Shown: positions 58,330 through 64,000 of the stretch, piece after piece
How positions within the stretch are numbered: position 1 is the stretch's first letter
Layout of the letters: each line of letters opens with the position of its first letter
Assembly: GCA_040397175.1 (NCBI GenBank)
Contig: JBBAWM010000002.1
Coordinates: forward strand, 190,482 to 254,481
DNA length: 64,000 bases
Direction of reading: 5' to 3'
Source of the DNA: Candidatus Limnocylindrus sp.
GTDB taxonomy: Bacteria; Chloroflexota; Limnocylindria; Limnocylindrales; Limnocylindraceae
Notes under the pieces: model-generated
The model's database searches: none
What the model saw: the letters and a program-made list of their open reading frames with translations, nothing else
What the model was told of the DNA's origin: nothing
Made by a program: the position numbers and the translations under genes

Positions 58330-59730
58330 TCACAGTTCGCGACGGGCGTACTCCGCTCGATCACGTCGAAGGAACTTCCCGGCGCCCTCACGGCCCAGGA
58401 ACACACCCCCCTCAACAATGACGCTACCGCGCGAAAGTACGATCTCCGATGCTCCCTGAACTTGGCGTCCCTCGTAACACGAGTAGTCAACATCCATATG
58501 GTGCGTAGCGGCAGAGATGACGCGCTTCGCCGCTGGGTCATACATCACAATGTCGGCATCAGAGCCAACGGCAATGACCCCCTTCTTCGGATACATGCCG
58601 AAGAGTCGCGCGGGAGCGGTAGAGCAGATCTCAACCCAACGCTCCTTCGTAATCTTGCCGGTCACCACGCCGCCGTCGTGGAGGAGGTCGATACGATCCT
58701 CCACTCCGGGCAGTCCGTTGGGGATCTTGCGGAAATCGTCGCGTCCCAACTCTTTTTGACCGTGAAAATCAAATGGGCAGTGGTCTGTTGCTACGACCTG
58801 CAGCTCGTCTCGAACGAGCCCACCCCACAGTTCTGGCTGATGGTCTTCGCTGCGCAGAGGGGGCGAGCAGACAAACTTCGAGCCGTTGAACCCGTCTCCA
58901 AGGTCTTTGATCGAAAGGAAGAGGTATTGCGGACAGGTCTCCGCGTAGACCGGGAGCCGCTCCTCCCGCGCCGAACGCACACTCTTGAGCGCCTCTTTTG
59001 CGGAGAGGTGCACGATGTAGACGGGTACCTTTGCAGCCTCGGCGAGCCTGATCACTCGATGCGTAGCTTCACCCTCAAGGCTCGAGTATCGAGCCAATCC
59101 GTGTCCGATCGGGTCGGTGACGCCGGCGGCCACGGTATCTGCGGCAATGACATCGATGGCGAGGCCGTTCTCGGCATGCATCATGATCATGCCGCCGTTC
59201 TTGCCCGACTGCTGCATCGCTCGGAAGATGGCTCCGTCGTCGCTAAAGAAGACGCCCGGATAGGCGGTGAACAACTTGAAGTCAGGGATCCCCTCCGCAA
59301 CCAGGGTATCCATCTCCTTCAACGTATCGTCATTGACGTCGCTCATGATCATATGAAAACCGTAGTCAATTGCGGCGTGCCCCTCAGCCTTGCTGTGCCA
59401 CGCGTCGAGCCCTTCGCGCAGCGACTTGCCGCGGGATTGCACCGCAAAGTCGACCACCGTCGTGGTCCCACCGAAGGCCGCCGCGCGCGTTCCGGTAAAG
59501 AAGGTGTCCTTGGCGGAGGTGCCGCCGAACGGCAGCTCCATGTGCGTGTGCACATCAATGCCACCCGGAATGAGCCACTTGCCGCTGGCGTCAATGACGC
59601 GATCAACCGTCATGTTGCTGAACTCTCCCGTCACACCAACGCCCACAATCAACTCGCCGTCAATTAGCACGTCTGCCATGCGTGAGCCCTCAGCTGTGAT
59701 CACCATTCCGCCTGAAATTACCGTTTTCAT
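58330..59730 (-). CDS. hydA: dihydropyrimidinase (D-hydantoinase)
   Basis: PGGIDVHTH, GGTTTVVDF, KLFTAYP, HAENG, ETCPQYL, TDHCPF, IPNGLPG. Confidence 0.95.
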   Translation of the reverse strand: MKTVISGGMVITAEGSRMADVLIDGELIVGVGVTGEFSNMTVDRVIDASGKWLIPGGIDVHTHMELPFGGTSAKDTFFTGTRAAAFGGTTTVVDFAVQSRGKSLREGLDAWHSKAEGHAAIDYGFHMIMSDVNDDTLKEMDTLVAEGIPDFKLFTAYPGVFFSDDGAIFRAMQQSGKNGGMIMMHAENGLAIDVIAADTVAAGVTDPIGHGLARYSSLEGEATHRVIRLAEAAKVPVYIVHLSAKEALKSVRSAREERLPVYAETCPQYLFLSIKDLGDGFNGSKFVCSPPLRSEDHQPELWGGLVRDELQVVATDHCPFDFHGQKELGRDDFRKIPNGLPGVEDRIDLLHDGGVVTGKITKERWVEICSTAPARLFGMYPKKGVIAVGSDADIVMYDPAAKRVISAATHHMDVDYSCYEGRQVQGASEIVLSRGSVIVEGGVFLGREGAGKFLRRDRAEYARREL

Positions 59731-59743
59731 AAAGCCCCCCCTA

Positions 59744-60748
59744 CTAGTGCGTGTTGACCGCAGCGGCCCGATAGGCGGGAATAACGTGTGTGCCAAATAG
59801 TTCAAGCTGCTCCGCCTCATCGCCATTCATCAGGTATAGATTGAACTGAGTAACACCCGCCTTGTCGAGCTCGACAAGCTTATGAACATGGTCCTCAACT
59901 GAGCCGACAAGCCCGAACCGATCCACGATTTCGTCGGTAACGAACGATGCATTCGTCGAACCCACCTCAGCATGGTGCAAGTAGTTGTACCCCTCACGGT
60001 CGCGAACATATCGCGTCAGCGACTCTGGCAGCGCACCCTCGTACTTATTGATCAGGTCGACCACGTGATTGCCCACCAGCGCCGGGAACCAGCGGATACG
60101 CTCGCGGCCAGTGTCAACGTCGCCAATATATGAGGGGGCTGCGGCCATGATCTCTACTGGGTTCGTCCGACCACTCGCCGTTGCTGCCTCCTGCACCTGC
60201 CCAGCAAACCAGCGAATCAGGTCGGGGTCGCCAATCTGTAGGAGTGCCCCGTCTCCTAGCCTTCCGGCGAGGCTCAACGCCATCGGCCCATAGCCGGCGA
60301 TCCACACTGGCAGGCGATGGCCCTTCGTCCAGGGGAGGTGCAGTGCGGTGCCCTCGTGCTCCATGGAGGTGCCAGCGACAAGGCCACGGATCAGCACTAC
60401 CGCCGCTTCAAGGTCCTTCATTGAGGTTGGTGCCTTGCCTAGAACACGCCGCGCCGAGTCACCGCGCCCAATCCCAAGATCAACCCGACCGTTGGAAAGC
60501 TCGCTCAACACGGCCAGCGTGCTTGCCGTGACCGAGGGTTCACGCGTGGCCGGATTCGTCACGCAGGTACCGAAGCGCATGGTGCTCGTCGCGCCGATCA
60601 TCAGCGTGAGCAGTGGATACGGATCTCGCCACAGCACATGAGAGTCAAACAGCCATCCGTACTCGAATCCGAGCGCCTCGGCGCGGCGCGTGAGCTCCAA
60701 CGTTTCTTCTATCGAATGATCTGGCTTAAGGGTGAACCCAAATTTCAT
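59744..60748 (-). CDS. luciferase-like (LLM) oxidoreductase, putatively F420-dependent (TIGR03842-like)
   Basis: WLFDSHVLW, GTCVTNPATR, LGIGRGDSA, AGYGP; between amidase and hydA. Confidence 0.85.
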   Translation of the reverse strand: MKFGFTLKPDHSIEETLELTRRAEALGFEYGWLFDSHVLWRDPYPLLTLMIGATSTMRFGTCVTNPATREPSVTASTLAVLSELSNGRVDLGIGRGDSARRVLGKAPTSMKDLEAAVVLIRGLVAGTSMEHEGTALHLPWTKGHRLPVWIAGYGPMALSLAGRLGDGALLQIGDPDLIRWFAGQVQEAATASGRTNPVEIMAAAPSYIGDVDTGRERIRWFPALVGNHVVDLINKYEGALPESLTRYVRDREGYNYLHHAEVGSTNASFVTDEIVDRFGLVGSVEDHVHKLVELDKAGVTQFNLYLMNGDEAEQLELFGTHVIPAYRAAAVNTH

Positions 60749-60759
60749 GTGCAAAAAAT

Positions 60760-61608
60760 TTACGGCCGCACAAGATCTTCATAGGCGTCTGGCCTGCGAT
60801 CTCGATACCACTGCCACGTTTGGCGCACGTCTTGGATCAGGTCTAGGTTCAGGCTGCGAACGAGGAGCTCCTCGTTGTGTGCATCACCAACTTCACCGAC
60901 GAACTGGCCGCGCGGGTCAACCAAATAACTCTGTCCGTAAAAATCATTCTCTCCGAGCGGCTCGATACCAACGCGATTGATCGTGCCAACGTAGTAACCG
61001 TTCGCCACGGCGTGGCTGACCTGCTCAATGCGCCAGAGGTGCTCCGAGAGACCGCGCGACGTGGCCGATGGGATGAGCACGATCTCAGCACCATTGAGCC
61101 CTAAGGCACGAGCCCCCTCAGGAAAGTGGCGATCGTAGCAAATGTACACGCCAACTTTGCCAACCGCCGTATCAAACACTGGATACCCCAGATTCCCCGG
61201 GCGGAAATAGAACTTCTCCCAAAATCCATTGACGTTTGGGATATGCGTCTTGCGATACTTTCCTAGGTACTTTCCGTCGGCATCAATCACGGCAGCGGTG
61301 TTGTAATAGATACCGCTCGTCTGGCTGTCCTCTTCATACATCGGCACAACAAGGACCATGCCCGTCTCTTTTGCAAGCGCCTGCATGCGCTTCGTGGTTG
61401 GGCCATCCGGAATCAACTCGGTGTAGGAATAATATTGCTTGTCTTGCACCTGGCAAAAGTAGGGTCCGTAGAAGAGTTCTTGGAAGAGCATGAACTGGGC
61501 ACCCTGCTTCGCAGCGTTATGCGCATACTCCTCGTGCTTCTGGATCATCGACTCTTTGTCACCGGTCCACTTAGCCTGGAGCAACGCTCCCTTTACGATG
61601 CGTGCCAT
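60760..61608 (-). CDS. beta-ureidopropionase (nitrilase superfamily)
   Basis: FQELFYGPYFC, KYRKTHIP, FWEKFYF, ICYDRHFPE (E-K-C triad). Confidence 0.9.
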   Translation of the reverse strand: MARIVKGALLQAKWTGDKESMIQKHEEYAHNAAKQGAQFMLFQELFYGPYFCQVQDKQYYSYTELIPDGPTTKRMQALAKETGMVLVVPMYEEDSQTSGIYYNTAAVIDADGKYLGKYRKTHIPNVNGFWEKFYFRPGNLGYPVFDTAVGKVGVYICYDRHFPEGARALGLNGAEIVLIPSATSRGLSEHLWRIEQVSHAVANGYYVGTINRVGIEPLGENDFYGQSYLVDPRGQFVGEVGDAHNEELLVRSLNLDLIQDVRQTWQWYRDRRPDAYEDLVRP

Positions 61609-61778: not shown

Positions 61779-61830
61779 CCCAGAAACAGCACCGCCCCCA
61801 CCAAATGGTGGAGGCGGTGTGATCAGCGCA
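61779..61830 (-). repeat. duplicated hairpin (terminator/REP-like), copy 1
   Basis: CCCAGAAACAGCACCGCCCCCACCAAATGGTGGAGGCGGTGTG, nearly identical to 63255-63305. Confidence 0.8.
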
Positions 61831-61842
61831 TGAGACCAGAAA

Positions 61843-63111
61843 TCAGCTGAGTGCGATACCGATCGCGAGGCTGAATCCGAACGCACCCTGCAGCACGATC
61901 GTGCCAACGTTCGCGCGCACGAGCTTGCGCGAGGCGAACTCGCGGAAGAGCACGGTGAGAGCACGTGCCGCGATCGGGAGCGTGAGCAGCGCTAACAACG
62001 CCGTTGGCGCAAGAGCGCCTGTGGCGACGAGTGCGATCAGGATTCCGTAGGCACCAACGAGCAGTGCAGCATAGCCCCAGCGTGCGGCGCTGGTGCCGAT
62101 CGTCACGACCAGGTGGTTCTTGCCGGCGAGCGCGTCGCTCGGCGCATCGGGGAACTCGTTGATCCAGAGGATGGCGGTAGTGAGCAGACCAACGGGAACG
62201 CCCAGGAGCCCCGCAACAGGGTCGATGGTTCCCGTCATTGCGGCAACTGCACCCACCGAGAGGAGCGGCCCGAAGGAAACGCCGATCAGCAGCTCGCCGA
62301 GCCCGCGTCGAGCGATGAGTCGAAGTGGTGGCGCGGTGTAGGTCCACGCGGCGATTGCACCGAGCACGCCAAGTGGGAGGACGATCGGCGAACCGAGCGC
62401 AGCGATCCCAAGGCCACAGGCGAGTGCTACGACGAGCGAGCCGACTGCAATGCGCATCAGTCCGCCTTCGGTGACGAGACCGAGCTCAATGGCGCGGCTG
62501 CCACCGGAGTACGGCAGGAAGTAGTCGTGGTTGATCTTGTCGGCACCGCTCTGCCAGTCGTACATGTCGTTCCAGGTGTTGGCGGCAATGTGCACCGAGG
62601 CGGCGCCCACGAGGGCCAGCACGAACGGTAGCCACGAGAAGGCCGAGACCTGTGCGGCGTAGGCACCGGCGATCAGCACCGGAATGATGCTCGCCGAGAG
62701 GAATGGGGCGCGCGTCACCACCATCCAGCGGAAGATCTTCGTGAAGGTCTTGATCTTTGGCTCCACGCGGGCAAGCTCGCTCATTGGGAGCGGAGTCGTA
62801 ACGCCGCAGTAGCCAATCTGCACGCCATCGCGCTTGGTTGGGGTGATGCGAATGGTTGCTGGGAAGCGGCTGCCATCTTTACGAACGAAGACGGTCTCTC
62901 CATCGTACTTGCCAGTGGTGCTCGCGGTCGCGAGCCAGTTCGGCACGTTTTGCAGCACCACCAGGCCTGGGGAGAACTGCGACACACGCGCCTTGCCGAT
63001 CACTTCGGAGGCCTTGTAGCCAAACACCTGCTCGGCGCCTGCGTTGAAGGTCTCGAGTCGGCCCTCCATGTCGCAAGTGATCGTGCTCTTTACGGCTGCG
63101 GTGGTTGCCAT
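61843..63111 (-). CDS. PAS domain fused to MenA-like (UbiA family) prenyltransferase
   Basis: N-terminal FNAGAEQVFGY..SEVIG and RKDGSRFP; C-terminal NTWNDMYD..SGAD, GGSR, NEFPD..SD..AGK; AAGGAG RBS. Confidence 0.85.
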   Translation of the reverse strand: MATTAAVKSTITCDMEGRLETFNAGAEQVFGYKASEVIGKARVSQFSPGLVVLQNVPNWLATASTTGKYDGETVFVRKDGSRFPATIRITPTKRDGVQIGYCGVTTPLPMSELARVEPKIKTFTKIFRWMVVTRAPFLSASIIPVLIAGAYAAQVSAFSWLPFVLALVGAASVHIAANTWNDMYDWQSGADKINHDYFLPYSGGSRAIELGLVTEGGLMRIAVGSLVVALACGLGIAALGSPIVLPLGVLGAIAAWTYTAPPLRLIARRGLGELLIGVSFGPLLSVGAVAAMTGTIDPVAGLLGVPVGLLTTAILWINEFPDAPSDALAGKNHLVVTIGTSAARWGYAALLVGAYGILIALVATGALAPTALLALLTLPIAARALTVLFREFASRKLVRANVGTIVLQGAFGFSLAIGIALS

Positions 63112-63254
63112 GGTGGTTCTCCTTCTCTTCAGATGCGCGGCATCAACTATTGGGATGATTTCATCGGGAATCCTACCAAAATTCCTTCCACGAGGATTCG
63201 CAGCCATGTGTATCCGAAACGGATTTTCCTTCTCGGTGCAGGCATGTTTTGAAG

Positions 63255-63305
63255 CCCAGAAACAACACCGCCCCCACCAGATGGTGGAGGCGGTGTGTTC
63301 AGTGC
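63255..63305 (-). repeat. duplicated hairpin (terminator/REP-like), copy 2
   Basis: CCCAGAAACAACACCGCCCCCACCAGATGGTGGAGGCGGTGTG. Confidence 0.8.
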
Positions 63306-63318
63306 GAGTAACCGAGAG

Positions 63319-64000
63319 CTAGGCGCGCTTTGCACCTCGAACTCGCAGGCCGATGCTGGCCGCAGCGGTCAGGCCGGCCAAGATCACCAGCATCGTGGTC
63401 CAGACCGAACCATCACGGCTCGTCTCTGGCAGCACGTAGGTCGGCTCATCGAGATAGGCGAACTCATAACCAGTGGCAGCGCTGTACACCGTGGTGTACA
63501 GGCGACCGCCGACGGCCACGATGTTCGTGTCGTAGCAGACGCAGCTGATGTACTGGTTTGTTCCACCAGGGAACGGCACGCTCTCTGTGGTCGCACCGTC
63601 TGTGCGCCAGAGGCCAAAGTTCGTACCGTCGGTGGCCTGGAAGTAGAGGAAGGCACCGAGGGCGGTGAAGGCGTACGGGGAGGAGTAATCGGCGCCGCCG
63701 CTGCCGGTGTTGATGTCCTGCACCAGTGCGGTCGTGGTGCCGTTGGTGCGCCAGAGTTCAGCGCCATGCGTGGCGTCGGTGGCCTGGAAGTAGAGGTAGC
63801 CCCCGAGGGCGGTGAACTCGTATGGGTAGGAGCCATCGGCGCCGTTCGTGTTGATGTCCATCACTAGTGCGGTGGTGGTGCCGTTGGTGCGCCAGAGTTC
63901 ACGGCCATGCGTGGCGTCCTCGGCGCTGAAGTAGAGATAGCCATTGAGGGCGGTGAAGTCGTTCGGGTCGGAGCTATCGGCGTCGTTCGTGTTGATGTCC
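63319..64000 (-). CDS. ELWxxDGT-repeat surface protein with C-terminal sorting-like signal (5' end outside window)
   Basis: Frame open to window end; ~47-aa repeats DINT...FTAL..YLYF.A.D..HG.ELWRTNGTTT; C-terminal LPETS-TM-basic tail. Confidence 0.88.
   Translation of the reverse strand, partial: DINTNDADSSDPNDFTALNGYLYFSAEDATHGRELWRTNGTTTALVMDINTNGADGSYPYEFTALGGYLYFQATDATHGAELWRTNGTTTALVQDINTGSGGADYSSPYAFTALGAFLYFQATDGTNFGLWRTDGATTESVPFPGGTNQYISCVCYDTNIVAVGGRLYTTVYSAATGYEFAYLDEPTYVLPETSRDGSVWTTMLVILAGLTAAASIGLRVRGAKRA

Follow-up and report, generated by a model that had tools for sequence, protein, structure and literature searches.

The question raised by this locus is what a sensor domain joined to an enzyme of menaquinone synthesis might do. 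The window analysed is a 64,000-nt stretch of DNA from Candidatus Limnocylindrus sp. (contig JBBAWM010000002.1, positions 190,482 to 254,481 of the forward strand), and one of its genes codes for a protein of 422 residues in which a PAS domain is followed by a membrane domain resembling the prenyltransferase MenA. Enzymes of the UbiA family are known as stand-alone membrane catalysts. It was confirmed that this fusion is real and conserved. The reading favoured here is that the protein is a salvage prenyltransferase carrying a ligand-responsive PAS domain on its catalytic cap, with a probability of about 0.42 when all steps are taken jointly; the salvage role alone is judged probable. No publication on PAS joined to MenA or UbiA was found in the literature searched, which leaves out most subscription journals and supplements, and searches on quinone salvage in Chloroflexota or Limnocylindria gave nothing addressing the question. 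The fusion is apparently unstudied.

Domain architecture and fold

A preliminary description, made from the sequence alone, had reported a PAS domain running without a stop into a MenA-like domain. This is borne out by the translation: the frame of 422 codons is free of stops, and both Asp-rich motifs as well as the N-terminal PAS hallmarks were found on it. The N-terminus matched Pfam PAS_9 (PF13426, residues 10-99) with 38.3 bits against a cut-off of 27, and the PAS S-box model TIGR00229 with 31.3 bits (cut-off 22.9). Pfam UbiA (PF01040) covered residues 143-391 with 103.9 bits (gathering score 34.2). An AlphaFold2 model built with 67 sequences had a predicted local distance difference test (pLDDT) value of 89 and a predicted template modelling score (pTM) of 0.85, and both a PAS fold and a UbiA-type membrane fold were recovered. 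When the full model was searched with Foldseek, UBIAD1 came first and PAS domains started at rank 4; the membrane fold matched 8djk_B and 4od4_A with target-based template modelling scores (TMt) of 0.81 and 0.79. The isolated PAS domain matched 3lyx with a Z value of 16.9 and a root-mean-square deviation of 1.7 Å over 106 aligned residues. The predicted PAS identity of the N-terminus thus holds by profile hidden Markov model and by structure, and the combination of PAS and UbiA, both above cut-off, is kept across several phyla.

Both domains were present in 118 of 120 listed homologues, and synonymous changes exceeded non-synonymous ones in the PAS half and in the enzyme half when four close relatives were compared. 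Together with the near-full-length loci described below, these results ruled out a frameshift, an assembly artefact and a chance fusion.

Distribution and conservation

The search of GTDB contigs gave 380 pattern matches, of which 341 coded for a relative. Of these, 80 loci were kept, and all of them matched the query from residue 1-9 through 405-422. According to the record titles, the carriers include Anaerolineae, Myxococcota, Bdellovibrionota and Ca. Limnocylindrus, the last being the closest (95-96%); the cluster names of the Atlas add Marinimicrobia, Dehalococcoidia, Cryomorphaceae and Flavobacteriaceae. The Atlas, queried with a homologue, returned nothing but PAS+UbiA clusters and fragments, whose automatic names already read PAS/UbiA. 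The spread over Chloroflexota, Myxococcota, Bdellovibrionota, Marinimicrobia and Flavobacteriales is patchy, and all members belong to one clade. The fusion was seldom seen: 3 of the 301 Chloroflexota genomes have it, as do 5 of 251 genomes around a Myxococcota carrier and 9 of the 42 from the host genus.

A quick tree of 73 MenA-type domains, the backbone of which was unresolved, placed the 31 PAS-fused rows on one side with a Shimodaira-Hasegawa approximate likelihood ratio (SH-aLRT) support of 98. Twelve menB-adjacent proteins and E. coli MenA (13 rows) grouped separately (SH-aLRT 99). The simplest reading is a single origin of the fusion followed by patchy spread, and no donor is claimed.

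The PAS half is the better conserved one: its mean identity to the query is 0.69, versus 0.56 for the enzyme, and it was higher in 75 of 75 proteins. A profile of the PAS domain alone was run against 1.84 billion representatives, and the 150 listed matches were rescored per domain. Among them, 26 proteins scored 127-180 bits and the next one 65; 16 of the 26 also matched a profile of the MenA half and the other 10 were short pieces. By inspection, nine of these ten were cut-off or frameshifted pieces, so that they were rejected as standalone PAS domains; the candidate P0392, on a contig of 847 bases, was rejected as it continues into unrelated sequence. Longer PAS fusions were represented, among 99 candidates, by only four generic PAS proteins with 33-35% identity, which is weak evidence. 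In the profile run and the checks of short and long proteins, this PAS subfamily showed neither a standalone nor a kinase-linked member. One family member, P0213, has about 115 extra residues N-terminal to the PAS domain, in which a pair of EF-hands was recognised by eye.

The enzyme half

UbiA-superfamily enzymes are characterised by two Asp-rich motifs, NDxxDxxxD and DxxxD (PMC7839719). In the fusion family, N178, N181, D182, D185, G189 and D191 of the first and N318, D322, D326 and K331 of the second region did not vary across the 76 proteins aligned; these motifs, the PF01040 score and the multi-helix membrane fold all place the enzyme in the superfamily. The best profile match was UBIAD1 (E 1.3e-19), and the best NCBIfam models were those of MenA. 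The MenA model TIGR00751 gave 96.4 bits with the whole protein and 97.7 with the domain alone, both under its cut-off of 102.15, and the scores with all PRK06080 MenA models were far below their cut-offs. The loop after the first motif reads FSGGSR in the PAS-fused family and GPxR in menB-linked proteins; unfused relatives sharing the FSGGS loop exist. Because the carriers mostly lack ring synthesis, as described below, it is likely a salvage enzyme; with MenA scores below cut-off and a place outside the menB-linked clade, it is no canonical MenA. It is not the housekeeping MenA of a full pathway but an accessory paralog where no ring pathway is found.

Ring-synthesis genes in the host and other carriers

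In the host genome (91.5% complete), MenB, MqnA/D, MqnC and MenG/UbiE were not found and MenD gave matches under its cut-off only; by contrast, it does have NuoH, chorismate synthase and a polyprenyl synthase. MenB was likewise not found in any of the 42 genomes of the host genus. From the 80 carriers, 50 genomes were picked for spread and contig size and searched: MenB was above its cut-off in none (one match lay below) and MqnA/D was found in one. MenG was above cut-off in 32 of the 50, which argues against genome incompleteness as the sole cause of the lack of ring genes. As a background, 118 Chloroflexota genomes had MenB and 42 MqnA/D, with no overlap among those listed (160/301, a tally that takes in the unpublished genome G263). 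In the Myxococcota-centred set a ring gene (MenB or MqnA/D) was found in 178 of 251 genomes, namely in 1 of 5 carriers (G596, MenB) versus 177 of 246 non-carriers. Fisher tests gave p values of 1.6e-12 and 0.026, which are overstated since relatives are not independent.

Precedents for salvage exist: Porphyromonas pasteri retains only the last two pathway genes and grows on 1,4-dihydroxy-2-naphthoate (DHNA; PMC9704088), and a partial pathway in Lactiplantibacillus plantarum turns outside DHNA into menaquinone (PMC10746273). In the salvage proposed for the fusion, a carrier would take up DHNA or a menadione-like ring from outside, and the membrane domain would add a polyprenyl tail to this scavenged naphthoquinone head group. 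The product would be demethylmenaquinone if the ring is DHNA, or menaquinone if it is menadione; the latter was considered because no MenG was found in the host. The PAS domain on the cap would tune prenylation upon binding a small hydrophobic ligand, and the head group that is prenylated, or else a quinone related to it, would be the most economical candidate for this ligand.

Two further UbiA-type genes were noted in the host genome. A distant MenA-like gene (L081:8172-9212, G000:C1) follows dnaE, and its best model, PRK05951, was below cut-off. A 614-residue frame (L083, G000:C1:233439-235280) has a UbiA-family C-terminal half and looks by eye like a fusion of heme A synthase and heme O synthase.

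Modelled position of the PAS domain

In order to place the PAS domain on the enzyme, residues 5-108 and 112-422 were folded as two chains with a custom alignment. The complex model scored 0.75, versus 0.00 for the best of three controls; three runs shared 100% of the contacts and the pLDDT of the partner was at least 90. Among solved pairs, 116 of 157 attained this mark, versus 2 of 215 among mismatched ones; with a custom alignment these figures hold only approximately. The modelled contacts join PAS residues 39-55, 72-74 and 82-85 with linker residues 112-131 and with residues 195, 199, 209-212 and 395.

Residues 195-212 sit between the first Asp-rich motif and the next helix. In UbiA enzymes, the loop L2-3 and two other elements form a cap that closes over the active site on substrate binding (PMC9314443), and residues 203-212 would correspond to this loop by their position and by that account. 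Within the PAS domain, R42, S44, F46, S47, G49 and V52 were invariant in 76 of 76 proteins. The invariant PAS motif is thus predicted to dock on the linker and on the catalytic cap loop, and a position against this loop fits with gating of the enzyme. The preliminary description had suggested that prenylation may be gated by ligand, redox state or oxygen; the modelled position suits the general idea, and the routes through heme or a light-oxygen-voltage (LOV) flavin are unsupported, as discussed below.

Other front domains and gene neighbourhoods

Eighteen MenA-like loci were fetched for a high score or long frames. In two of them (L090:1398-2918 and L091:1390-2946) a PNPOx-type split barrel is fused, one above cut-off, and their MenA-like domains gave the highest unfused-type scores to the PAS-fused family. 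Split-barrel flavin/deazaflavin oxidoreductases include F420H2-dependent menaquinone reductases (PMC8498797). Four loci (L104-L107, e.g. L104:1121-3190) have an N-terminal luciferase-like domain; three were scanned, all above cut-off, the domains are F420-type by their best models, and the genomes have no MenB or MqnA/D match. Eleven loci, from Limnocylindria and others (L092-L094 and L096-L103; e.g. L097:1784-3115), share a conserved front domain of about 140 residues with GYP, SHIxPxxGxGYD and GWxE motifs, and the remaining one has no front domain. The domain of about 140 residues has no match in Pfam or PDB. In L097 its gene comes after a PNPOx-type gene; a split-barrel nature of the domain itself was not confirmed, the hhalign probability being 0.3 and only the upstream gene being PNPOx-type. 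The 17 genomes with a non-PAS front domain are all absent from the lists of MenB and MqnA/D matches. Possible exceptions are G211 and G155, outside the 18 loci, which have MenB plus long MenA-like frames.

Around the PAS fusion, 144 immediate neighbours were chosen by script and 77, mostly on the same strand, were scanned. Among these, a polyprenyl synthase is directly upstream of the fusion in five loci and a luciferase-like gene is upstream in two (L031 and L032); in these same two loci menG is directly downstream. In G152, which corresponds to L032 (L108:4364-10176), the fusion stands in a row of genes on one strand, preceded by cofD, cofC and the luciferase-like gene and followed by menG and a hotdog-fold gene. 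The adjacent luciferase-like gene shares just 24-27% identity with the luciferase-like domains that occur in fusions, which ruled out that they form one family. Clustering of the open reading frames of 80 loci and the window revealed no family-wide neighbour: no real family occurs in more than 13 loci, clusters 1-3 being shadow frames. The menaquinone role given in the preliminary description is backed by the menG and polyprenyl synthase neighbours; that the protein is not a housekeeping MenA had been overlooked there. A MarR-family gene was observed directly upstream of the fusion in five Myxococcota-type loci (L023, L030, L059, L064 and L067), and is possibly a quinone-responsive regulator.

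A broader picture would be a ligand-gated synthase of respiratory quinone: on binding a scavenged vitamin K ring, or else a flavin, the PAS domain would control whether the cap is open or closed, PAS being one of several swappable front ends (with split-barrel and luciferase-like domains) on salvage prenyltransferases. This picture is open to serious doubt. If it held, many uncultured microbes of lakes, sediments and the ocean would depend on vitamin K rings that other organisms make.

Weighing of the explanations

Several observations weigh against a ligand-responsive salvage enzyme. A MenA-like match was found in 229 of 301 Chloroflexota genomes and a MenB match in just 121; ring-less MenA-like genes without PAS are thus common, so salvage needs no PAS. 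A further MenA-like copy is present in 37 of 50 carriers, in several beside menG, and the host genus has a distant unfused paralog in 39 of the 42 genomes, of which nine have the fusion. Given these frequent other copies, the fusion may serve another substrate. The genomes G596 (PAS fusion and MenB above cut-off) and G311 (MqnA/D) are counter-examples. Carrier completeness is mostly unknown and related carriers were counted as if independent. In the complex model, which was built from two halves of a single chain and contains no ligand, linker 112-131, covalently next to the PAS domain, makes up much of the interface; an interface role alone could account for the invariant PAS residues.

This last point leads to the explanation that survives best after the favoured one, namely that the PAS domain binds nothing and, in a salvage prenyltransferase, is a fixed structural lid for the cap or helps the cap to fold. 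The invariant motif 42-53 falls on the modelled interface, a single rigid arrangement is suggested by the pTM of 0.85 for the whole chain, and no standalone or kinase-linked relative was seen in the searches described above. Conservation of the PAS domain above that of the enzyme would also be unusual for a sensor of varying signals. On the other hand, C13, F30, W59, L60, G67, F75, G100 and G103 are conserved outside the named interface; some of them are likely in the pocket, although all may simply belong to the core, and the existence of unfused relatives with the FSGGS loop indicates that the cap does not depend on PAS. A mere lid is considered unlikely.

It was also considered that the PAS domain holds a flavin and is a redox module, which would sense the redox state or help to deliver reduced quinol for a menadione-type substrate. 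The FAD-binding (flavin adenine dinucleotide) PAS domains of NifL, Aer and MmoS ranked 3-5 in the fold search, with Z values of 15.3, 15.0 and 14.9, and invariant W59 aligns with a NifL Trp which we take to contact the flavin. The PNPOx-type or luciferase-like fusions in ring-less Chloroflexota and the G152 cluster, where menG follows the fusion and a luciferase-like gene, cofC and cofD lie ahead of it, point the same way. However, these Z values are within about 1 of those of PAS domains with other or no ligand, the NifL Asn before RRKD, presumably the isoalloxazine-binding residue, is replaced by F75, invariant in 76 of 76, and the F420 cluster belongs to one lineage (2 loci). Moreover, we know of no PAS domain that acts as a reductase. 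This redox role is regarded as rather unlikely.

A more distant explanation is that the enzyme is only MenA-like and acts on another aromatic head group, coming from an unknown pathway or going into a non-respiratory product. It scores below every MenA cut-off, stands outside the clade of menB-adjacent proteins and E. coli MenA, has a different loop L2-3 and is usually an extra MenA-like copy, and the chorismate synthase of the host leaves room for an unknown ring route. Against this, menG and polyprenyl synthase adjoin the fusion in separate lineages, the fusion is the sole MenA-like match in 13 of 50 carriers, and no conserved partner gene for a new pathway was seen within 10 kb; the proposal is considered improbable.

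Direct gating by a heme oxygen sensor or a LOV light sensor, as the preliminary description had allowed for oxygen, is very improbable even though FixL, DosP and LOV domains are among the fold matches: PAS residues 8-107 contain no invariant His in 76 aligned proteins (position 55, which we take as a candidate for the proximal His of heme-PAS proteins such as FixL and DosP, is His in 59 of 76 and Asn in the window protein, whose PAS domain has no His), and at what is presumably the place of the LOV motif GxNCRFLQ the window protein reads GKARVSQFS, with Val for the Cys in 75 of 76.

The gene and its surroundings

The features of the fusion gene are collected in Table 1. The open reading frame caller gave an extension to 454 residues, the use of which is unlikely because of the Shine-Dalgarno-like element close to the internal ATG. 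The two hairpins carry the only full copies of a 51-nt repeat found in the genome, and the gene is likely transcribed separately from its neighbours. A sigma-70-like promoter was searched for and none was found. In one RNA run the word share was 0.05, and the contigs were less than 95% alike, with none spanning the PAS domain, so that this run tells nothing about expression.

Table 1. Coordinates of the fusion gene and its parts within the window.
Feature	Position	Strand	Basis
PAS-MenA-like fusion gene (P0001), 422 residues	61843..63111	-	Open reading frame, Pfam, NCBIfam, homologues, AlphaFold2
Shine-Dalgarno-like AAGGAG	63119..63124	-	7 nt before the ATG at 63111
Terminator-like hairpin upstream; one copy of the 51-nt repeat	63265..63296	-	
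Terminator-like hairpin downstream; second repeat copy, 92% identical	61790..61819	-	
PAS domain, residues 8-107	62791..63090	-	PAS_9 above cut-off, fold match to 3lyx, conservation
Linker and first helix joining PAS to the membrane domain, residues 108-134	62710..62790	-	Secondary structure of the model (DSSP), interface 112-131
UbiA-superfamily membrane domain, MenA/UBIAD1 type, residues 135-421	61849..62709	-	Pfam, NCBIfam, profile and fold searches
Family motif R42-V-S-x-F-S-P-G-x-x-V-L53	62953..62988	-	Predicted contact with linker helix and cap loop
First Asp-rich motif, N178..D191	62539..62580	-	Alignment
Second Asp-rich motif, N318..D326	62134..62160	-	Alignment
Cap-loop motif GGSRxIELGL, residues 203-212 (209-212 predicted PAS contacts)	62476..62505	-	Alignment, complex model

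Downstream, at 58330-61608, a carbon-nitrogen hydrolase, a TIGR03842 F420-type luciferase-like gene and a dihydropyrimidinase follow each other, a set that likely breaks down pyrimidines and depends on F420 in one step; the host genome has homologues of cofC and cofD. A functional tie of the fusion to these genes was rejected, since a terminator-like hairpin lies between and no neighbour is shared family-wide. On the other side, at 63319-64000, lies a gene that is truncated at the contig end; it has repeats of about 47 residues (ELWRTNGT type) and, at its C-terminus, a membrane anchor, and a Pfam scan of it gave no match.

Significance and comparison with known systems

If the PAS domain does dock on the catalytic cap, respiratory quinone synthesis would be under direct allosteric control, and the co-distribution with missing ring genes points to cross-feeding of vitamin K rings in uncultured Chloroflexota and Myxococcota. 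The significance is tempered by the fact that salvage by unfused MenA is already known and that the fusion is accessory in the host genus.

With MenA (TIGR00751, PRK06080; E. coli b3930) the enzyme shares the UbiA fold, the RP motif, both Asp-rich motifs and, at some loci, the neighbours menG and polyprenyl synthase. It differs in its N-terminal PAS domain, its scores below cut-off, its separate clade, FSGGSR in place of GPxR and hosts that mostly have neither MenB nor MqnA/D.

UBIAD1, the animal menadione geranylgeranyltransferase (PDB 8djk), is the top profile and fold match of the enzyme; it is about 25% identical to the fusion and has no PAS domain. The hosts of UBIAD1 make no ring of their own, and by gene searches the carriers mostly lack ring synthesis as well. 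UBIAD1 prenylates menadione and is regulated through binding of geranylgeranyl diphosphate (GGpp) and HMG-CoA reductase (PMC9314443).

The FAD-binding PAS domains of NifL, Aer and MmoS and the S-box PAS of CPS_1291 (3lyx) resemble the sensor half in fold (Z 14.9-16.9), NifL also in the Trp aligned with W59. In contrast, identity is 19-22%, Phe replaces the NifL Asn, and the output of the fusion is a membrane biosynthetic enzyme and not a kinase, cyclase or receptor.

The salvage MenA/DmkA of the ring auxotrophs Porphyromonas pasteri and Lactiplantibacillus plantarum is alike in belonging to a partial pathway, but the parts of these two reports that were consulted mention no fused sensor (PMC9704088, PMC10746273). 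The hosts of these enzymes are oral or food bacteria, whereas the carriers of the fusion are mostly uncultured environmental lineages.
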